Virus record (IMG/VR): IMGVR_UViG_3300031555_001519
Span: 73,478-137,477 of that record
Length of the DNA stretch: 64,000 nucleotides
Strand: one strand, 5' to 3'
Origin: a virus
Taxonomy: Duplodnaviria > Caudoviricetes
In this document: one piece after another, positions 2,734 to 56,033 of the stretch
Position numbering within the stretch: position 1 is the first letter of the stretch
How the letters are laid out: every line of letters begins with the position of its first letter
The notes under the pieces: model-generated
What the model saw: the letters and a program-made list of their open reading frames with translations, nothing else
Told to the model about the DNA's origin: nothing
Databases searched by the model: none
Program-made: the position numbers and the translations under genes

Positions 2734-5700
2734 TCTATTTCTCCTTCATCTTTTGGCTTTTCGCTTATATTAATTTGTTCCATACGAACAGCAGAGTAAT
2801 TTTTCTGTTTAGAACATATCATCCAATCAAATGATGCACCAGCTTCACCATGTACTGTAAAGCTATCATATTCTTTTGTAACATATACCTGAGCAGAAGA
2901 ACTTGTTATAAAGACTTGATATTCACTATTCATATCAATTGTTTCTGCAAATATAGGGTCAATAAAAATAGTAGTAGAACCTATTTCTGAAATAGTTCCA
3001 CTACCAATATCTGCAAAATATGGTTCTGGTGTTTCAAATGCATTCATTCCGACCTTTCCATAATGTTCTGTATCAACAACTCTATGTTTTGTACCAGAAC
3101 ATCCTATATCACCGAACACATATAAACCGGAACCACCACCAACATATACACCATTATCACCACTACCATATGTTCCAACATAAAAGCTTGCGAATTTAGA
3201 TATGTCTGTTTCTGTATTAGATGGCATCAAATTTATGTCAGTACAATGCATGGTGTTGAAAAACCTCGAAGCACCTCTGAAAAGATGTCTTTCAGTACAA
3301 CCATTCGGATTCACGCCAAAGTTCATATAATAATATATATCTGCTGTATCTTCTTCAGTTTTATGAACTTGACCAAGTCCAACACAATTACCATTTGTTA
3401 TCATAGCAATTCCAGCATTAAGATTATTGACTGTAGGATAAGTACCATCTCCACCTATTATACTCAAATGCCCAACTTCTAACCAACCATTCTCTGTTGT
3501 TTCAGGATTGGTCAGACCCCACGTAGAAAACCATAATCTTGCACTGCGAAGAGATGCAAGATAAGGATAACCATCATTTGCGATACCTTCACAAGAAATA
3601 GTACCATTAATAGTCGCTTCACCTTTCGAATCAACTTTAAATTTATCACTTATATTGATAGAACCACCAATAATCTTCTTACCAGTAATAGTAGTACCAG
3701 TAATATTCTCAGCAGCAACGCTTCCGGCAGTAATTTTTAAAGCATTAAGCTTTTCAACATTAAGTACACCATCAACATCAATCTTATTTGCAGAAATAGT
3801 AATAGTTTCAGCAGTCTGATTAATTTTAGATATTACTTCATCATTACCAACCTTTTTAGATACTTCTAAATTGATTGCTTGAGCAGAAAGTTGAATAGCA
3901 CTGTTCATCTGAGTGGTAGTGGAATAACTTTTCAGCTTTTCAGTAGTATCTGCTTTTGCATTTGACTCTGCTTGATTTGCTTTAGTTGTTGCATCATTAG
4001 CACTTGTTTTAAGCACATCATCTTTAGTGGTTTCTAACTCTTGTTTAGTACTATATGTCTTACTAACTGAAAGATTTATTTCATCTGCTTTAGCTGTAAT
4101 AGCACTATTCATTTGGGTAGTAGTAGAATAACTCTTAAGTTTTTCATCTGTATTAGCTTTTGCATTTGATTCAGCAGTGTCAACATAATTCTTATTAGCA
4201 TAATTGGCATCGTTTTCAAATGCAGATATCTTGGTAGGAGCATTTGTAATATCTTGCCATGTCATACTAACACCACTAAATACAAGATCTGAACCATCAT
4301 AAGTTATTTTCCCACCAGCAAACGAAAACGTACCATCATTTAAGTTGATATGTGTTCCAGAAGTGGGAGAGTAGTTCTCTGAATAGATCTCTCCTCCAAT
4401 TATTTGACCACCATGTATGTAGGGGGAATTTAAAAACTTTGCAGATAAACCATAACCGGTATCTTTTATGAGAACCCCATCAACATACTTATAATAGCTA
4501 TGTTTTCCTAATCCTAAAGTTACTGATTTCCAATTATCATCAGTAAATGCTAAAATGTTATGCGTAATTCTTAGTTGCTCAGAACTAAAATCATCTGCTA
4601 TATCATCGTAACTTCTAGACAAGATACCATTATTGTCAAATGTAATATCACCTCTAACATTGTTTTTTATATTAATAAGAGCTGAATTTAATCCATCTGA
4701 TTCAAAATTTTTCAATGTGTTTTGAGCAGAGCTTCCGTGAGAAGCTTGTTTGGACACATATTGATAAGTTGTAGCCATTGACTGAGCAGAATCTAAGATA
4801 CTCTTAAAATCAACAATTCCAGATGAAACCTTGGTCATATCTGAAAACTCAGTATTAATAGATGAAAGGCTTTTTCCATTAATTTCATAAGATATTAATC
4901 TTAATCTATAAATGCTATCATCAACCTTACATCTAATCCAGTTGCCCAAATAAAATTTATCCTTTATTGGGGCAAATTCTTCCATTGCCAGAAGATTGTA
5001 TAAATTAGATGATATACTATGCTGATGTTCGCCTGATTTAACTATTTCTTGTTTGGCAAGCTCTATAAACTCTAAAGCGTTTACAAAAATTTCTGCATTA
5101 TCTAATCCATCTGAAATGAAATTGTCGTTTTGATATGTATCTTCTCGACGATAAGAACAGAAGAGAGTGTATAATTCTTCACCTAAATACTTTTCAAAAT
5201 TTAGAACACTTTGAATCTCATTTCTTTGTTTAATCAGTTCTGTTTCTCTGTTTTCATATTCTTCAATAGTAATAGCACGAACATACATTTCATCTTGACA
5301 TGCTGTGAGTTTATAATAGTATGGAAGATAGAACTCGTTATAATATTTTGCATCTGTGCCAGATTGGTTTTCTTCAATAAGAATATTAAGAACACCTTGA
5401 ATTGCATCAGCAAAAGATTCTAGTCTATTATAACAATAATAAGTAAGAGCTTCTTTAAATGTATCTAAATTTGTAATAGATAAAACATCATATAAGCTCT
5501 CATCATCACTATCATTACTTGCAATATTCTTTTGAATTTTTTGTACAAGGTAATAATTGTAATCATCAGTAACTTTAATAGTAATTATATCTGAATATGC
5601 AATGTCTTCTTCATCAGAGTAATTTGTAACTTTGAATCTACCAGTCCAGGTACCGTAATTATATCCTTCTGCATCTTTTCCGACATATACAAAATTCCCG

Positions 5701-14881: not shown

Positions 14882-16217
14882 CAATCTGTTACTTTCATCT
14901 ATATTTATAGACTACTGACTATGTGTATACATAGCGGTTAGTCATTTCTGGCTAACTCTCACATTTTATTATTAGATTATTGTGTGAGTTCGGACTGGAT
15001 CTTCACCCTCTCTAAGTAGAGTAGGGGAGTAACGGAACTCTATATGTTACCATATAAAGTATTACAGTCTCTACGGATTCTTTATAAATATTTGTTTATT
15101 ATAATAGACCAAATGGTTAGGCATTAGTCGTATTATGAAAAAAAGGATATATTATATTTGATTTTAGAGATAATGTATCATTTTGTAATGCATAGTTAAA
15201 TGAATGATAATTATCTAAAACTCCATTATTATCAATATATTTTAAAATTAATTTTCTGCATAATTCAATATTATTATATATGTCACTTTCCCATAAATAT
15301 AATATCTCAATATTATTATTGTTTTTTATGTAAGTGTGTTTTGTTTTGTCTTTTGAAATTCTATTTTGTTGTATTTTATTTAAATTGTCTAATTGATATT
15401 TTGTAGGATTACTATGCCAAAAATCACCCATTACTTCAATTATTAAATTATTTTCATACAGATAGTTATCAACAGCATAATATGTAAACACCTCTTCGTT
15501 TCTATAAGATATCTTCATTTCATCCAATAGTTCATTTGTAAGAATTTGAGGTTTTGTGTTTAATATTTTTTGATTGTCTTTTAAAATATTAACTGCTCTT
15601 AATCTAGATTTTTCTTTCCATTCTGGTGTTTTGTAAAGAACATTATAAAACCAATCTTTCATACATTTTTCCCCACAAAAATGATTTTCATATCGCTCAT
15701 AACGAGACGGTTTTATTTTTATTACTCTATTACAATTAGTACAATTACATTTTATCCTAACGGTTTGTGGATTATTATCACCAACTCTTGTTGTTTGCCA
15801 TTTATTTTGACATTCCGTTGAACAAAATCTCTGTTTAGATTTCTTACTAACATGAAAAATATTATCGCATATTTCACATTTTCTATCTTCAAATAATTGT
15901 TTATGTTGGTACTCTTTTTGGCATTGATTAGAACAAAAATGATGTTTTGCTCTTTCATATTGTGTCTTAGTTTGATACACTTCTTTATTACAATTTTCGC
16001 AATTAAAAGTATATCCAGTCTTTTGTCCTTTTGCTGGCATTCTTTCTCCTTTCTATATTTTTATGCATAAAAAATACACGTCCTTCCTAACTGACGTGTA
16101 TAAACAAATATTTATAAAGTCTTTCCACGGTCTTAACCATCTCTGGCTTTTAACCGTTATAGTTACTTTTTAGTATATAAAATACCCACATATTACTATG
16201 TGTTCGGGCATAAGTTT
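14882..16217 (-). ncRNA. group I intron 1 of the TMP gene (1336 nt) with homing endonuclease in the P6 extension
   Basis: P1 CGGGU/GCCCG with U.G at the splice site. P (AACGGUU), Q (GACCGUGGAAAG), R (CGUAGAGACUG) and S (GAAGAUCCAGUCC) elements; P3 AGUAAC/GUUACU; P7 GACUG/CAGUC; terminal G at 14882. A perfect 19-bp inverted repeat (15080-15098 / 16101-16119) brackets the ORF. Confidence 0.92.
15117..16040 (-). CDS. intron-encoded homing endonuclease (Cys-rich Zn repeats plus Vsr-like/EDxHD nuclease domain)
   Basis: Three CxxC...FCxxxC repeats, then VDNY...IIEVMGDFWHSNP...D...LYLWESDI. AAGGAG RBS. Confidence 0.85.
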   Translation of the reverse strand: MPAKGQKTGYTFNCENCNKEVYQTKTQYERAKHHFCSNQCQKEYQHKQLFEDRKCEICDNIFHVSKKSKQRFCSTECQNKWQTTRVGDNNPQTVRIKCNCTNCNRVIKIKPSRYERYENHFCGEKCMKDWFYNVLYKTPEWKEKSRLRAVNILKDNQKILNTKPQILTNELLDEMKISYRNEEVFTYYAVDNYLYENNLIIEVMGDFWHSNPTKYQLDNLNKIQQNRISKDKTKHTYIKNNNNIEILYLWESDIYNNIELCRKLILKYIDNNGVLDNYHSFNYALQNDTLSLKSNIIYPFFHNTTNA

Positions 16218-19200
16218 ACCCGCTCCCACTTTATCAGGGTCTTGAACTACCGTATTAGCTGCAGTAGTAAGAGCAGCGGCTTCAAAGAAATCGTTTTGAG
16301 CAGTTTTTAAAGCACTAGCAGAATTTTGAAGTGCGGTTGCTAAACCATCGGTTGATATTGCAAAATTATTACCCAGATTATTTACAACATCAATGATTTC
16401 ATCCTTTCCAAGTTCTCTATAAGCTTGACTCATAGAAACTAATGATTCAGTTGCTTCATCAATGCTTCCAAACTCAGATACGTTAAACAGAATATTAGCA
16501 TCTTGAGCTGACTGTTTTGCTTCTTCAAGGCTTTCACCAAGTCTCATAAAATCAGCAGTACTTGACTGAATTTGTTTAGCAGTAGTACCAATCGAATCTG
16601 CTAATCCAAAACTTTCTTTCTGAAATTCTTTTAAAACAGAAATACTTTCTTCACTTACCTTATTCATTTCAGTAAGAGCAGTATCATATTCTTTAATTGT
16701 TTCGAAACCTTGTCTAATAATCTGAAGTGCGTCATAAATACTTACATATGTAGCAAAATAAGCAGCAACATCTTTAAACTTCTTCTTAATTTTGTCGCCC
16801 ATAGAAGCGCCGGTTTTACCAGTTTTTTCAATTTGTGCTTCAAGTCTTGCAAATTCTGCTTTTAATTCATTAAACTGTATTTTATTAATGACTTCTGTAC
16901 TGTTCCTAAATTGTTCGATTTTATCATTTAAAACTATTAATTCTTGTCTTAATTCTTTAGGAGCTGCGGTATTAAGGTTTATTTTCTTTGATACCTTTTT
17001 ACTTAAATCATCAAGCTCTTTAGAAGCAGATTTAAATTCATCTCCCTTTAAAGAACGAATCATATTAGTGATTGTGTCTTCAGCTTCTTTTAACTCATTA
17101 ATTTCGGCTTGATTGGTAAAATCAATAGGAAGCTTTGACTCCAAATTAGAAATTGCCTGACGAATTTCTGTAATCTTCAATTCATAAGCTGGCACTTTAT
17201 TTTCCGCACCGGATAGATTATTAACTTGAAGAGTAGCATTATTTATAAAGTTTTTACTTGATAATTCAGAATATTCTTTAAGTTTTTTGTTGAATTTTTC
17301 TTGGGCTATTGCAGCCTCGTTAGTTGCATTAGCATATTTGTCTTGTTCTGAGATAGCCTTTTTTATTTCTGATTCGAGTTCAGCTAATTCGCCTTTTTCG
17401 TTTAAAGTTCTGGGCGTTGATGCCAAGGTACCTTTAATTTCTTTGTTTTTAAGTTCGTAATATCTTTTTAGTTTTCCGGTTAACTCGTCATAAGCATCAG
17501 CAGTTTCTTTAACCTGATTTTTAAGATATTGCTCAATACTAATTTGACCTTCAATAGCATCATTAGTTTTTTCAATAGTAGCTTCAGTTTCTTTTTGAGA
17601 CTCTTCCAAGCCTTCAAACATCGCTATTTGACCAGAAGGTTCCTGAATTAGTTCAAATTGCTTATTTTCAGAAGCTTGCTCATTCAAGTAATCAATTAAA
17701 TTAATCTGGCCTTCGATAGAATCATTAGTCTGCTCAACAGACTGCTTAATTTCTTTCTGCTGTTCTTCGACACCTTCGAACATTGAAAGTTGTCCGGAAG
17801 GTTCCTCTATAAAAGACAAAGCGGCATCAGTTTCTTTTGCTTGTTGCTGAGTTTTTTCAAGTTCGGTTTGCAGTTTTTGTTGAATTTCTATTTTTGAATT
17901 CGACTCAGATCCTGAACTTAGAATCTTTGTCATTTCTCCAGTTCCGGCTTTAACGGCAGCAACTACTTGTTCATTCTTTATTTGAGCTTCATTAAGTGTA
18001 ACCATTACATTAGAAAGTTCACCATTTGCTTCGCCAAAACCATCCCTAATATTTCTAAAGATAACTCCATCATGACCTAATTGCTTTGCTAGTTCTACAA
18101 TTTCATCAGTAGTTCTCTTTATACCATCAAATTCAATTTCGTTCCAAACAGCACCATTACCATCAATTTCTAATGGATTTTTATAAGATAAATTTGCAGA
18201 ATATATTTTTCCACTATTAGCTAAAGAATCAGCATAATCAGCAGCTAACTCTAATTGATCGGTAAAAAAGGCTATACCTTTATCATTAACTAATCCAGAC
18301 CATGCGTTTTTCACACCTCTAAATGCTGTTATAGTTTTTCCTTCTTCGTCAGATAAAAGAGATGTGTTTGAATAATCGGTATCATGCACACGGATTTTTA
18401 TATCCTTTACTTCTGGAAGTTTATCAATTTTCTCCTGTATTGTTTCTGTATTAACTAAAGCTTCTTTAATATCAACATCAACTTTTAATTGTGATTTAGC
18501 ATTAAAATCTTCAACTAAAGTTGTTAGTTTTTTTATATCTTCTTCATTAACAAATACATTTGAAAAATCTTTTTCTAATTTATTAGCTTGTTCTCCAGCT
18601 TCCTTCTCGGCTTGTACGAGTTTTTCTACTGCCTCAGTTGTTTCTTCAACTTGCTTTTCCATAGTAGAAGTGGCAACAGGTTGTTCTGAAACTTCTTTTT
18701 GAGCAACTTTAAGTTTTTCAATCTCTGCAAGTTGCTTTTCAGTCATGTTTGTGATTTCTGTAATCATCTTTTTATAATCATCTGCATAATCATAAAAAGT
18801 ATCTTCTTGATCTTCAGATAAATCTTTCCCTAATGATAAATATCTTTGAGAAAAACCTACTAAATCTTTTTCTTCATCCTCTGATAAAGTTCTTTTATCT
18901 AATGCTTTATTTAAAGAAATAACATTTTTCAAAGCAGTTTCCGCATCAACAGCATATTTAATAACATCGGCAAATTCTTCTTTCAAATTTTCGGCAGATT
19001 GTTCCCATAAATCTAATTCTTTACCGTCAGAACCATTGCCAACGTTATTTAATGTAGTGTCTAACTGTTCAACACTCTCAATTGTTTCCTTTACTGATGC
19101 TTCTATGTTTTCAACAATTAAGCTTTCATCTTGAGCATCCACTTTTGCAGATGAAGCAGAAGGCGTTCTTTTTTCTATTCTTGCTTTTACCTTTTCAGAA

Positions 19201-21960: not shown

Positions 21961-22523
21961 TCCTTATATTTATTGCAAACCATATTTTGTATTTCTTTTT
22001 GTATACGTCCTTCTTTTGCTTTATTTAAAATAGAACAGTTGCGAGAGTAACGTTTACAATTTTTACACTTATCTTCAAACTGATTTAATTGTTCTTGATT
22101 ATCAAAAATCCCAATATAGTCCACAGGATAAATAGTTAATTCTATATGAGGATTCGCAGAATCGTAATAGATACGATTTATTCTTTCACATACTACATTG
22201 TCATCCACCCAAATTAATTGAGTATCAGTAATGGTATCTAGACTTACCTTAAAATAGTTATTTGCATCCATATCAATTCTTGGAAAATAAAAAACAGCAT
22301 CAACATAAAAATGTTGTGCTGGATTTAATGGCATATTCCAATTTTGAATTTTTACTTGTTCTCGTATGTATTCTTCAAACTTTTTCTGAAAATCTTTTGC
22401 TTCTTTTGTTTTATAGCTCATTGCCATAGGTTTACCATTTTTCATAATAGTTCTATAAGCCAGATAATGATTAACAGAAATAAAGTCCTCAATAAATAGT
22501 TTTAATTCTTGTCTACAACTCAT
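21957..22523 (-). CDS. rusA: RusA-family Holliday junction resolvase
   Basis: SVNHY, DMDANNYFKVSLD, WVDDNVV and PHIELTI motifs. Confidence 0.8.
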   Translation of the reverse strand: MSCRQELKLFIEDFISVNHYLAYRTIMKNGKPMAMSYKTKEAKDFQKKFEEYIREQVKIQNWNMPLNPAQHFYVDAVFYFPRIDMDANNYFKVSLDTITDTQLIWVDDNVVCERINRIYYDSANPHIELTIYPVDYIGIFDNQEQLNQFEDKCKNCKRYSRNCSILNKAKEGRIQKEIQNMVCNKYKE

Positions 22524-22569
22524 TTATCATTTTCCTTTTATTCGTTAAAATAGAGTAAGAGATTATTCT

Positions 22570-22824
22570 CTACTCAGTGTCATCTATAATTTCGTATGTA
22601 ATATCTACAGGAACAACAACCATTTCTATATCTAATCCGGTATCCATATAATAATACTGAAGAATTGATTCGGCCAATTTTTTACTCATTGCTTTTGTGG
22701 CAACTTCAATATCTTCTACAAAATAATATTCTTTCTTTGCAGGTATTTTCTTTAAATATAGTGTAGGATTATCTAATGTAGCAATTACATATTTTCTTAT
22801 TTTCTTTTCTAAATAACTTTTCAT
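22570..22824 (-). CDS. hypothetical protein
   Basis: 84-aa co-oriented ORF. Confidence 0.7.
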   Translation of the reverse strand: MKSYLEKKIRKYVIATLDNPTLYLKKIPAKKEYYFVEDIEVATKAMSKKLAESILQYYYMDTGLDIEMVVVPVDITYEIIDDTE

Positions 22825-22826
22825 AT

Positions 22827-23048
22827 TTACTCCAATTCATGTGCCAACCAAGCTTGATATAAGTCTTTTGTTTCTTCTCTTAAAAAGATATAAACAATAA
22901 TATCTTTTCCATCCTCACTAATACCTGGATACATATCAATTGGAAATACTCTATGCTTTACATACCTTTTATATTGTACCTCATTTACAATTCTACACAC
23001 TTCTTTTTCAGTGTATGGACGAGGTTTCAAATTTGATTCAATTTTCAT
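22827..23048 (-). CDS. hypothetical protein
   Basis: 73-aa ORF with AGGAG/AAGGA RBS. Confidence 0.7.
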   Translation of the reverse strand: MKIESNLKPRPYTEKEVCRIVNEVQYKRYVKHRVFPIDMYPGISEDGKDIIVYIFLREETKDLYQAWLAHELE

Positions 23049-23070
23049 ATCCTTTTTCTCCTTTTAAAGT

Positions 23071-23113
23071 AAAAAAAGGGGATACAACTCGAATAGTGAG
23101 CTGTATCCCCTTT
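23071..23113 (-). terminator. intrinsic terminator
   Basis: GGGGATACAGCTC...GAGTTGTATCCCC hairpin followed by a T run on the minus strand. Confidence 0.7.
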
Positions 23114-23136
23114 ATAATCAAATCACTATTCAAATA

Positions 23137-23544
23137 CTAATTCTTTTTGGCATACTTACCATATTTCTTTTTAATGTGTACTTTTTTGTCCTCTACCTTT
23201 TTAGGTTGTTCCATTACTACAGATTCAATTGAATTATCTTCTGTACCAGACTCTATTGGTTCTACTTCGTTAGCCTCAACATCGTACGCTTCGTTTATTA
23301 TTTTAATAATGTTTGGTCTTAAATTATCTTTGTAAGATAAGTCGCAGGCATCATATTTATCTTTTGCTGTTTCTTTTGTAATATATTTTCCTGCGTAATC
23401 TGTAGATATTTCAAAGATATTCATGCAATTCTCATTATGATACAAATTCATCCAGCGAGGAAGATGATCAAATTGAGAACAACCATTGCAAAATGTATAA
23501 ATTTTTCCGCAAGTAATACATTCCTTGTTATTTTTCTTCATCAT
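23137..23544 (-). CDS. hypothetical Zn-binding protein
   Basis: CITC...CNGC...HNENC; AAGGAG RBS. Confidence 0.7.
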   Translation of the reverse strand: MMKKNNKECITCGKIYTFCNGCSQFDHLPRWMNLYHNENCMNIFEISTDYAGKYITKETAKDKYDACDLSYKDNLRPNIIKIINEAYDVEANEVEPIESGTEDNSIESVVMEQPKKVEDKKVHIKKKYGKYAKKN

Positions 23545-23654
23545 ATTATGTAGCTCCTTAATCAATTACTTATAAGAGCCATATAAATATGACTCTAAAA
23601 CAGCAAGCAGACTATGACATCTGCTTGCCGTAATAATAACTATTTATTTTCAGA

Positions 23655-33727: not shown

Positions 33728-33814
33728 TCGACACCTCCTTATTATTTTATATCAAATGACCCACCGTGGTACGCATTATTAAGAGGCGTGGTGGGTTCTG
33801 TTTAAATTATTATT

Positions 33815-42215: not shown

Positions 42216-42298
42216 TTGGGGGAGTGGGAGTTGAACCCACCTAGCAATTGCAACGGTTTTACAGACCGCCGTAACTAACCGAGAGTTACCTTCCCCCA
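42216..42298 (-). tRNA. tRNA-Tyr(GTA), atypical D arm
   Basis: TGGGGGA/TCCCCCA acceptor, GCGGT-CTGTAAA-ACCGT, long variable loop, GTGGG-TTCAACT-CCCAC. Confidence 0.8.
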
Positions 42299-54080: not shown

Positions 54081-54215
54081 TGTGGATAAGTTTTTGAGGG
54101 AGTTGAAGAAATGGTAAGGATAATAAGGGGAATTGGAGATTGTGGAATATGTGGATAAGTATGTGGATTGTTTAATTTTGTTTAGTAATGGATTGGGAGA
54201 ATTGAGTGTGGATAG
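54081..54215. promoter_or_regulatory. DnaA-box cluster
   Basis: Perfect TGTGGATAA (= TTATCCACA) at 54081 and 54150; near matches at 54141, 54162 and 54207; all in one orientation. Confidence 0.6.
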
Positions 54216-54426: not shown

Positions 54427-54454
54427 TTGACTTTCATTTCTATCGTGTTATAGT
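54427..54454 (+). promoter_or_regulatory. rightward early sigmaA-type promoter
   Basis: TTGACT, 16 bp, extended TG-t-TATAGT. Confidence 0.65.
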
Positions 54455-54460
54455 TCAATC

Positions 54461-54956
54461 ATCAGCAAGAGCTGATAACCACTAAACAGTCAAGGCTGTA
54501 AGGTGTGTATTGCAAGTATAGTCAAGGCTATACCCATAGGCAACACGTCAACTATGTCTACAGTTTAAGGAAGGAGTGTATTTTAGGGGATAACTGTACC
54601 CTCATGGACTAATACCTGTACCATGTAAAAAACGGTATAACCGGGAAAGAATGCCGTTCTGCTCGGGGTAGGGGAAACTTTACCCAAAGTATAATACGGT
54701 CGTCAGTGGTGTGCTAGGTATCCCGTAACTCCCTAGCGAATGGACAACGCAAGAAGTCTGCCCAAATGGGCTATATTGTGCGACGCATCTATCTTGATGA
54801 TGGGTGGTCTATACCTTGAGGAAACAAGTCCTAGCTGGTAACTAGGAAACTGTCTACACGCAGTCTGCAAGTCGGTAGTATCTCAAGTAAATACGGTGTT
54901 TAGCAGGCACTAGGAAGGTTTGATAGTAGGTTTAAAGTCCTATTAGTCGCAAAAAA
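54461..54956 (+). ncRNA. candidate ~500-nt structured early leader/ncRNA
   Basis: No ORF in the track, GC-richer, many hairpins (two AGTCAAGGCT hairpins, CCTAG-CTGGTAA-CTAGG, GGTAGGG-GAAA-CTTTACC). Bounded by a promoter and a twister ribozyme. Confidence 0.55.
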
Positions 54957-55036
54957 GTCTGTAATGCTACCACTAGGCATAACAAGGATAAGTCCTAGAT
55001 GGCTGTTACAAGTCAGCAAAAAAGCAGAGTACAGAC
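54957..55036 (+). ncRNA. twister ribozyme, type P1
   Basis: P1 GUCUG/CAGAC; U^AAUGC; P3 CUAGG/CCUAG; P4 GCUG-UUACAAGU-CAGC; 3' GCAGAGUA; pseudoknots UAC/GUA and AC/GU. Predicted cut 54962/54963. Confidence 0.85.
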
Positions 55037-55090
55037 TAAATAAAATTAAACATGGCACGAATAGCCCAAAAATCGAGAAAGAGGTTTATT

Positions 55091-55747
55091 ATGGCAAAGA
55101 CTACAAACAAAGTTGATTTATTCCAGGCAGACAAGGCAATGAGCGAAAGAGTAGCAGAATTCATGCGTACAAAAGTTTGGGGTATCACTTTGAAGGCACG
55201 TTGTAAGGCTGAGATTGCGAAAGCAGAAGCCAGCATTGAAGGACTCCGGAATTTAGATGGTTCTGTATTAGCAGACAAAGGCAAGGACTCTATCATCGCA
55301 CTGGAAGCTCACATTACCGAGCTTAACACCAAGTTGGCAGAACAGCTTAAGGAAGAGGCTACCTTTGACCTTACTGAGAATGATAAGACTTTCTATAAGG
55401 CTTACAAGGATGCAACCACAGAGTCTGAGGTAGTAGAGGCTATCATTGCATGGTTTGCAGCTTATCATCTTGAAGTAACCAAGGACAGTGACATTATTGC
55501 ATTGATTGCAGGAGCTATCAGTGGTGCAAAGCGTGCATCAGCTAAGACCATCGTCAACAGTGGAGCTACTCAGTTTGTAGAGAGTAAGCGTACTAAGACC
55601 GACATCATTGGATTGTTCTACGGTGTACTTGCAGAGCGTATGCTGGAAGTTGGTACCTTAAAAGCTACTGAGATTCAGGAAGACGTGCGTGAGTTCTATG
55701 CACCTAAGAAGAAGGTTAAGAAAGAGTCTAAGAAAGAGTCTAAGTAA
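55091..55747 (+). CDS. first early protein, hypothetical (218 aa, basic C-terminal tail)
   Basis: GAGG RBS before MAKTTNK; ends KKKVKKESKKESK. Confidence 0.85.
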   Translation: MAKTTNKVDLFQADKAMSERVAEFMRTKVWGITLKARCKAEIAKAEASIEGLRNLDGSVLADKGKDSIIALEAHITELNTKLAEQLKEEATFDLTENDKTFYKAYKDATTESEVVEAIIAWFAAYHLEVTKDSDIIALIAGAISGAKRASAKTIVNSGATQFVESKRTKTDIIGLFYGVLAERMLEVGTLKATEIQEDVREFYAPKKKVKKESKKESK

Positions 55748-55751
55748 TCTA

Positions 55752-55835
55752 CATAATTGCAGAGTGTGAGGACAGGCCACCAGTCTGTCCTTTAATGCAC
55801 TACCCATAGGGTAACGGTCACAAGTCCGTGCATTA
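55752..55835 (+). ncRNA. twister ribozyme, circularly permuted type P5
   Basis: GCAGAGUG; P1 AGGACAG/CUGUCCU; U^AAUGC-AC; P3 UACCC/GGGUA; P4 CGG-UCACAAGU-CCG; pseudoknot CAC/GUG covaries with the first copy's UAC/GUA. Predicted cut 55793/55794. Confidence 0.8.
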
Positions 55836-55850
55836 GAGAGAGGTACAATT

Positions 55851-56033
55851 ATGCAATCAATAGCGACAGTAAAAAGAGATAAAGTATACCAAGTATTAGG
55901 ATATAGCAGTGGTAGAATTTTAGTGTTATATGAATCAAAATCTGAAGATGAGTGTGACGATTTCGCAGATGATTATGCTATTGCTAACAATATGTATTAT
56001 TTACGTATTGAAAGTGCGTACTATAAAAAATAG
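55851..56033 (+). CDS. small early hypothetical protein
   Basis: 60 aa; GAGGT RBS. Confidence 0.7.
   Translation: MQSIATVKRDKVYQVLGYSSGRILVLYESKSEDECDDFADDYAIANNMYYLRIESAYYKK

Follow-up and report, generated by a model that had tools for sequence, protein, structure and literature searches.

What does a bacteriophage gain from placing a self-cleaving ribozyme on either side of a single early gene? The question is raised by a 64,000-nucleotide (nt) stretch of DNA, called the window below, which is the last 64 kb of the 137,477-bp IMG/VR record IMGVR_UViG_3300031555_001519 (about 81% complete) and whose phage context is given by a terminase, transfer RNAs (tRNAs) and the IMG/VR record itself. 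Within it, gene 1 (55091-55747, plus strand) lies between a type-P1 twister ribozyme (54958-55035, plus strand) and a type-P5, circularly permuted twister (55758-55829, plus strand). A sequence-only reading of the window had taken this pair as a device that excises an early messenger RNA (mRNA), which may then be circularised or stabilised. We propose, with moderate confidence, that the pair serves as punctuation: by cutting themselves, the two ribozymes would divide the early transcript into a leader RNA, a gene-1 mRNA that is monocistronic and folded at its ends, and a downstream mRNA.

Identification of the twister ribozymes

The two elements were compared across 12 loci, namely the window and 11 related loci, of which L012 and L013 are near-identical and count as one observation; unrelated twister loci were added for the ribozyme alignments. 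In an Rfam cmscan the 3' element matches the Twister-P5 model (RF02684) at 40.6 bits, above the gathering score of 37.6 (E value 5e-5 for the whole window), and the P5-type twisters of the relatives score 38-51 bits; our own model R1 gives the window copy 93.1 bits. Its UAA cleavage triplet, T55793-A55794-A55795, predicts a cut between U55793 and A55794. When the eight P5-type sequences are aligned, 95.3% of the cells pair, against 33-40% with the partners slid, nine pairs are changed on both sides, and the pseudoknots T1 and T2 are 93.8-100% paired. The pairings that can be drawn for a canonical P5 stem are weak and AU-rich, and we claim none of them.

The 5' element matches the Rfam twister-P1 model (RF03160) at 42.5 bits, which is significant by its E value (2e-7 when 2.5 kb were searched, 5e-6 for the whole window), and scores 106.9 bits with our own covariance model R2. 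Here the triplet is T54962-A54963-A54964, with a predicted cut between U54962 and A54963, and both the UAA at the cleavage site and the AAG in the P4 loop that mark membership of the P1 type are present. Across 15 P1-type sequences 96.1% of the cells pair, compared with 20-40% in slid controls; 13 of the 19 pairs are changed on both sides, and P1, P2, P3, P4, T1 and T2 all covary. The pairs of T1 are CG in ten sequences and UA in four, and AU in 14 and CG in one, while T2 has AU in 14 and GC in one; neither pseudoknot was part of the model that had collected these sequences.

The T1 pairing is UAC/GUA for the 5' copy and CAC/GUG for the 3' copy, where the Rfam consensus is CCC/GGG, and T2 reads AC/GU in both, where the consensus is GC/GC. 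Since these departures are paired on both strands, every departure from the consensus is compensated. Because compensatory changes are found in all helices and in both pseudoknots across the relatives, we regard the two elements as genuine twisters, and the sequence-only reading, which had put a type-P1 twister cut at 54962/54963 immediately 5' and a type-P5 twister cut at 55793/55794 immediately 3' of the gene, with pseudoknots that covary between the two, is upheld by the covariance models and by the relatives. The Rfam cmscan found no other ribozymes in the 64-kb window, and there are no further twisters in the 137-kb record. A hand-written twister descriptor proved too loose to serve as evidence (about 58 matches in shuffles), and covariance models were used in its place.

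Three further twister-like sequences were seen in other loci. A close relative of the 3' twister (L021, 10710-10782, plus strand; 71 bits with our own model) lies between two other small phage genes, where its 5' strand shares bases with the stop codon of the preceding open reading frame (ORF) and a ribosome-binding site (RBS) follows directly after it. In L009 a hairpin at 2855-2893 (GAGGGCAA...UUGCCCUUUUUG), directly 5' of the P1-type twister, resembles a P1 hairpin such as P5-type twisters have, and the U-run of this hairpin is the 5' strand of the twister P1; this hints that the P1-type copy may derive from a tandem duplicate of the P5-type one. Finally, L006 has at 2905-2950, about 90 nt 5' of its real P1 twister, a sequence like the start of a decayed twister, AAGUCUGUCAAUGCACUAGG, with CAA replacing UAA.

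RNA ends left by the predicted cuts

The cut positions, confirmed from the UAA triplets, delimit an 831-nt RNA that contains, as had been claimed, the RBS and the whole ORF of gene 1. Excision of this RNA is to be expected because both ribozymes are real, conserved and co-oriented in one transcription unit, and its stabilisation is plausible because folded RNA remains on both new ends; it is the circularisation put forward along with these two that finds no support, as set out below.

What would remain on each product? The predicted 5' cut falls near the 5' end of its ribozyme, which leaves the P1-type twister almost whole on the gene-1 mRNA. At the other side, the P1 hairpin of the 3' twister (55768-55792, plus strand; -16.1 kcal/mol, z -3.0) ends 1 nt before the predicted 2',3'-cyclic-phosphate end at 55793 and would become the 3'-terminal hairpin of the mRNA; an equivalent hairpin of -13 to -18 kcal/mol is found in all eight P5-type loci. 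The 5' end of the downstream RNA after the predicted cut (55794-55835, plus strand) has a minimum free energy fold of -13.3 kcal/mol, in which P3 and P4 could be closed by a helix between AAUGCAC (55794-55800) and GUGCAUU (55829-55835) that keeps the next RBS free. A comparable pairing of the downstream 5' end is predicted in seven of the eight P5 loci. The elements are closely packed, with the 3' twister starting 11 nt past the stop codon of gene 1 and ending 6 nt before the next RBS.

Flanking devices in related loci

If a cut on either side of gene 1 is what matters to the phage, which devices do its relatives carry at these places? The combination of a P1-type twister 5' and a P5-type twister 3' is found in four of the 12 loci (the window, L003, L004 and L009). 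In L005, L011, L012 and L013 a tRNA-like element lies 5' of the gene and a P5 twister 3' of it, and in L006 the 5' device is a P1 twister, with tRNA-like elements following gene 2, where L003 and L005 carry such elements as well. L010 has two putative type III hammerheads (2873-2925 and 3925-3981), in which the core (CUGAnGA, GAAA and the cleavage triplet) and the three stems are complete, the 3' one past a second small gene. In L007 and L008 the flanks are terminator hairpins.

The tRNA-like elements, each with an acceptor stem and a canonical T-arm for which folds were drawn, sit between small early genes at about 3917-3975 in L003, about 2843-2900 and about 3960-4020 in L005, about 3991-4048 and 4295-4362 in L006, 2337-2417 in L011 and about 2150-2210 in L012. 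These assignments come from motif and fold: the T-arm motif has seven matches against 0.26 expected by chance, and at a threshold of 90% ARAGORN calls two of the elements against 0.1 expected. Default ARAGORN settings gave no tRNA near gene 1, and the 80% threshold, at which each shuffled set yields 9.5 matches, is pure noise and was not used. As an observation in its own right, the tRNA-like elements occupy the places at which other relatives carry ribozymes, and most of them are not called as tRNAs.

The conserved positions, the permutation types and the replacement of one device by another are read directly from the aligned loci. On this comparison the conserved feature is insulation or cutting on both sides of gene 1, and not the twister as such, and the fact that non-homologous devices are swapped in points to cutting or insulation as the selected property. 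Where twisters are used, the permutation goes with the position: the 5' side has the P1 type in five of five cases and the 3' side the P5 type in eight of eight, the choices by which as much folded RNA as possible stays on the gene-1 mRNA.

Promoter-like site and leader RNA

A promoter-like site, TTGACT and TATAGT spaced by 16 nt with a TG just upstream of the latter (54427-54454, plus strand), was found in a consensus scan; it has ten of 12 consensus matches with an extended -10 element, is conserved in L003 and L004, and is the likely start of the early rightward transcript. The same scan gave no promoter-like site between the 5' twister and gene 1, which implies that transcription reaches gene 1 by way of the leader and the ribozyme.

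Between this site and the 5' cut lies a conserved structured leader RNA of about 500 nt (54461-54962, plus strand), defined by its conservation and by helices of which several carry compensatory changes. It is 98-100% identical to its counterpart in L004 and about 93% to that in L003, against just 76-77% in the adjacent coding sequences, and L009 and L007 have detectable copies as well. It is closed by a long-range helix, GCGAC/GUCGC, whose end lies 11 nt short of the predicted 5' cut. The leader has no long ORF and matches no Rfam family, even in a 526-nt search; its best match, retron msr (E value 3.2), was taken as chance, and an RNase P-like GGAAA..AGUCC motif that we had suspected found no support in Rfam. 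From the sequence, the 5' twister is predicted to separate this leader from the gene-1 mRNA.

Could maturation of the leader, by which a discrete non-coding RNA of about 500 nt would receive a precise 3' end, then be the main task of the 5' twister, with any effect on gene 1 incidental and the 3' twister an independent intergenic site? That the leader is so much more conserved than the neighbouring coding sequence (98-100% vs 76%), that its closing helix stops 11 nt short of the cut and that no known family accounts for it would all agree with such a role. The layouts of the relatives, however, show that leader and twister are separable: in L009 about 190 nt separate the 3' module of the leader from the twister cut downstream of it, the leader of L007 is accompanied by no twister, and L006 has the P1 twister with no detectable copy of the leader. 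Moreover, with a P1-type cut the ribozyme remains attached to the mRNA and not to the leader. We therefore consider leader maturation an unlikely main role.

Proposed punctuation of the early transcript

We favour punctuation because the ribozymes are genuine, the bracket is conserved across changing devices, the permutation types are consistent and the packing is tight. The early rightward promoter would give one long RNA comprising the leader, the P1-type twister, gene 1, the P5-type twister and the genes from gene 2 onward, and both twisters would cut themselves during or soon after transcription with no need of a host nuclease. Three products would result: a leader RNA of about 500 nt with a 2',3'-cyclic-phosphate end 11 nt past the closing helix; an 831-nt monocistronic gene-1 mRNA, whose 5'-OH would lie within the retained pseudoknotted twister body and whose 3' end would be the twister P1 hairpin; and a downstream polycistronic mRNA, whose new 5' end could fold into a short stem beside a free RBS. 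The selected function would be the punctuation itself, by which stability, amount and translation could be set separately for the leader RNA, gene 1 and the later genes. We infer cleavage in vivo, stabilisation by the retained folds and a benefit to the phage.

Several points weigh against this account. The RNase J1 of Bacillota can be drawn to a 5'-OH end, the glmS ribozyme being an example, and cleavage could destabilise the RNA instead of stabilising it unless the fold shields the end. The uniform permutation types could stem from common descent and not from selection. L007 and L008, with their terminator hairpins and no ribozymes, indicate that gene 1 can manage without ribozymes, and most of the tRNA-like elements are tentative assignments from motif statistics and folding. 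The score of the P1-type twister, 42.5 bits, is below the RF03160 gathering score of 67.2, an unusually high cut-off under which the P1-type twisters of the relatives (47.6-56.9 bits) likewise fall, and the linker of the window copy is CAAAAA against a consensus of UAAA. The hammerheads of L010, too, stay under the Rfam cut-off (24.2 and 26.5 bits vs the RF00008 gathering score of 48.5; E values of 0.002 and 0.006 in short searches), and in the 5' copy an additional A follows A6, a hammerhead variant of low reported activity (PMC3088659).

Comparison with known systems

The function of self-cleaving ribozymes in bacteria and phages has been called largely elusive (PMC6765202). The closest precedent is that of Perreault et al. 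2011 (PMC3088659; reviewed in PMC6765202), in which self-cleaving ribozymes, like those predicted here, lie on both sides of one phage gene in a co-directional operon, and the flanked gene is without assigned function in both cases. There the suggested task of ribozymes flanking single prophage genes was to break long phage transcripts down into mRNAs of one gene each, the same role as ours, and tandem hammerheads cleaved in vitro and in vivo (PMC3088659); differing stabilities of the cleavage products have also been suggested (PMC6765202). Judged by its sequence, our locus has the layout by which that arrangement is defined, with at least two ribozymes that lie in the coding strand and flank a gene of a phage operon from either side. 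The layout as such was thus described in 2011, and the idea of a circular product was already raised in that work (PMC3088659).

Our locus differs in that both ribozymes are twisters, of two permutations that are fixed by position across the relatives, in that the 5' ribozyme also splits a conserved large leader RNA from the mRNA, and in that relatives have hammerheads, tRNA-like elements or terminators where the twisters stand here. What is added is the rule that permutation goes with position, the exchange of devices around a single orthologue and the association with a leader RNA that has not been catalogued. With the twister family as a whole (clan CL00120; RF03160 and RF02684) the two elements share the stems P1-P4, the pseudoknots T1 and T2, the UAA triplet and the AAG loop, all covarying; they deviate from it in the pseudoknot sequences and, for the P1-type copy, in the score below the Rfam cut-off, and cleavage is here a prediction.

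RNase III cuts the early mRNA of phage T7, and tRNAs punctuate mitochondrial transcripts. As in those systems, a polycistronic transcript would be cut at structured intergenic sites with hairpins protecting the ends, and the tRNA-like elements found between genes in several relatives would correspond to the cut sites of tRNA punctuation. In contrast to both, cutting in the window is predicted to be autocatalytic, with no host enzyme, and to leave 5'-OH and cyclic-phosphate ends. Theta ribozymes, which are minimal hepatitis delta virus-like ribozymes, adjoin tRNAs in gut Caudoviricetes for which Bacteroidota and Bacillota hosts have been postulated (PMC10879173). They share with our twisters that a small phage-encoded ribozyme sets the end of a neighbouring non-coding RNA, but they belong to another class, act on tRNA 3' trailers and bracket no protein gene (PMC10879173).

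Alternative explanations

Cleavage might also be a device for down-regulation or timing, possibly dependent on a signal, in which the exposed 5'-OH is attacked by a host 5'-to-3' exonuclease and either gene 1 or the downstream genes are the target. Cleavage by the glmS ribozyme in Bacillus marks the downstream RNA for RNase J1. This known route would be open to the phage in a Bacillota host, which is probable because the sole terminase similarity, a distant one, is to Bacillus and Clostridioides phages; regulated cleavage has moreover been suggested for phage hammerheads (PMC3088659). Both twisters are, however, compact and canonical with no aptamer-like extra domain, the retained folds at the new ends look protective, and a strong RBS together with a gene kept first in the operon in all relatives is hard to reconcile with constitutive lowering. 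We regard down-regulation as rather improbable.

Could the two ends of the 831-nt RNA instead be joined? Host RtcB, a kinase-HD protein and an Rnl5-type ligase of the phage, or the reverse reaction of the twister might seal them, and the product would be an exonuclease-resistant, translatable RNA. The appeal of this idea lies in the end chemistry, since the 5'-OH and 2',3'-cyclic phosphate left by twisters suit RtcB and are exploited in the Tornado system (PMC9013764), and in the presence of two phage proteins that make a plausible heal-and-seal pair for such ends. The first is a 305-aa fusion of a polynucleotide-kinase-like P-loop domain and an HD phosphohydrolase, encoded outside the window at 15518-16435 of the record (L044:1486-2403, plus strand); its best solved matches are the kinase domain of C. 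thermocellum Pnkp and then T4 Pnk, which makes it a candidate RNA end-healing enzyme. The second, a 400-aa Rnl5-type RNA ligase, is likewise encoded outside the window, at record positions 22396-23598 (L043:862-2064, plus strand); it has a PHA02142 OB-fold and an RNA_ligase domain and matches the solved Naegleria gruberi RNA ligase with an E value of 1.9e-35. Neither PNK3P nor 2H/LigT families are present in the phage record, and a search of it for Rnl1 gave no match, as it gave none in any control genome either. In the window alone, end-to-end pairing is about two standard deviations better than in shuffles.

These attractions are outweighed by the layout and by the relatives. The absence of rtcB that had been noted for the window extends to the rest of the phage record, at 81% completeness, and to three related records. 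In Tornado (Litke and Jaffrey 2019, described in PMC9013764) an RNA between two twisters is likewise released with a 5'-OH and a 2',3'-cyclic phosphate, but there a P3-type twister lies 5' and a P1-type one 3', both ribozymes are discarded and designed complementary ends are offered to RtcB (PMC9013764). The natural layout mirrors this in reverse, so that the almost whole P1-type ribozyme at the 5' end and half of the P5-type one at the 3' end would be retained in the product. For twister 3' fragments, the 5'-OH has been reported to be buried and poorly ligatable (PMC8782182). Nor is the end pairing conserved, its duplex energy being no better than that of shuffles in L003, L004 and L009. The ligated junction would consist of GCAGAGUG, the P1 hairpin, U|AAUGCUAC, P3 and P4, which rebuilds a complete twister that should cut again.

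The relatives argue in the same direction. RNase P and RNase Z products of tRNA-like elements would not be RtcB substrates, and five of the 12 loci have a tRNA-like element on one side, which would give ends that RtcB could not join. A homologous ligase domain is found in the related record G002 (L045), where a tRNA-like element replaces the 5' twister, and the occurrence of the Rnl5-type ligase there without a 5' twister fits a general role such as tRNA repair; repair against anticodon nucleases would be the ordinary reading of the kinase-HD and ligase pair. Rnl5-type ligases seal 3'-OH/5'-phosphate nicks in duplexes, and a duplex splint is not evident here. For phage genes flanked by hammerheads, Perreault et al. 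2011 (PMC3088659) searched for circular or spliced products and detected none. A circular gene-1 mRNA is accordingly very improbable in our view, and so is a natural circular, translatable phage mRNA, joined end to end and cycling between open and closed forms.

It is hardly credible that either twister, or the pair, is a dead relic or a selfish passenger that does nothing for the phage: although activity is predicted from sequence, the P1-type score lies below the gathering score and two relatives are without ribozymes, compensatory changes have preserved the pairs and both pseudoknots in loci whose proteins now share 45-80% identity, and such maintenance is the signature of purifying selection on the fold.

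Gene 1 and its surroundings

Gene 1 encodes a 218-aa helical protein with a lysine-rich tail and 41 homologues at 42-100% identity. Its start at 55091 is supported by these homologues and by the RBS GAGAAAGAGG (55075-55084, plus strand), which is read from the sequence and conserved upstream of all homologues. The protein has no match in Pfam, in PHROGs or in a sequence search of the PDB. A confident AlphaFold model (predicted local distance difference test score, pLDDT, of 84.6) has a long helical hairpin and a small helical domain, and Foldseek gave no fold match for it in the PDB or BFVD. The next gene, gene 2 (55851-56033, plus strand; 60 aa, from the ORF list), would be the first gene of the downstream product, with the RBS GAGAGAGG read at 55836-55843 (plus strand). 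In addition, a small hairpin lies just 5' of, or overlaps, the gene-1 RBS in the window (55051-55084) and has equivalents in L003, L004, L007, L008 and L009; it is kept in most relatives despite differing sequence and reads CCUAU...AUAGG in L003, L004 and L009.

Gene 1 is in all 12 loci the first gene beyond a stretch of 1.1-1.9 kb that holds no genes and lies where transcription diverges. In the window, structural genes and tRNAs form a long minus-strand block up to about 54 kb, and from about 55 kb on small genes follow on the plus strand. At the point of divergence three co-oriented DnaA boxes lie within 135 nt (54081-54215, minus strand) in a G-rich, C-poor stretch; TTATCCACA is perfect at 54081 and 54150 and has one mismatch at 54207, and the cluster is a possible replication origin.

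Three other RNA matches were seen away from gene 1. An abiF RNA motif (RF03085) at 33759-33795 of the window (minus strand; 46.8 bits vs a gathering score of 37) adjoins the terminase gene, and a sub-threshold tRNA-Sec-like match (42218-42297, minus strand; 38.2 bits vs 47) lies at the edge of the tRNA cluster. In the early-gene block of L006 a molybdenum cofactor (Moco)/tungsten riboswitch aptamer is matched just below threshold at 4567-4731 (plus strand; 35.7 bits vs 36, E value 7e-5).

As to further relatives, an alignment-based scan of viral contigs gave three loci. No close relative was found by blastn and tblastn against GenBank phages, and protein-pattern scans, of viral contigs with the single protein and of metagenome and genome contigs, gave no additional ones; a P5-motif scan of viral contigs and a leader-motif scan of genome and viral contigs likewise had no match.

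Implications

The same gene, in the same place, with four types of insulation and a permutation fixed by position, amounts to a clean natural comparison. It makes a hypothesis of punctuation and end-shielding for phage ribozymes directly testable with a few constructs, and the natural layout shows why Tornado-like circle-making is unlikely. The uncatalogued structured RNA of about 500 nt at this locus, and the RNA end-healing and end-sealing enzymes of the phage, would be worth a separate follow-up.

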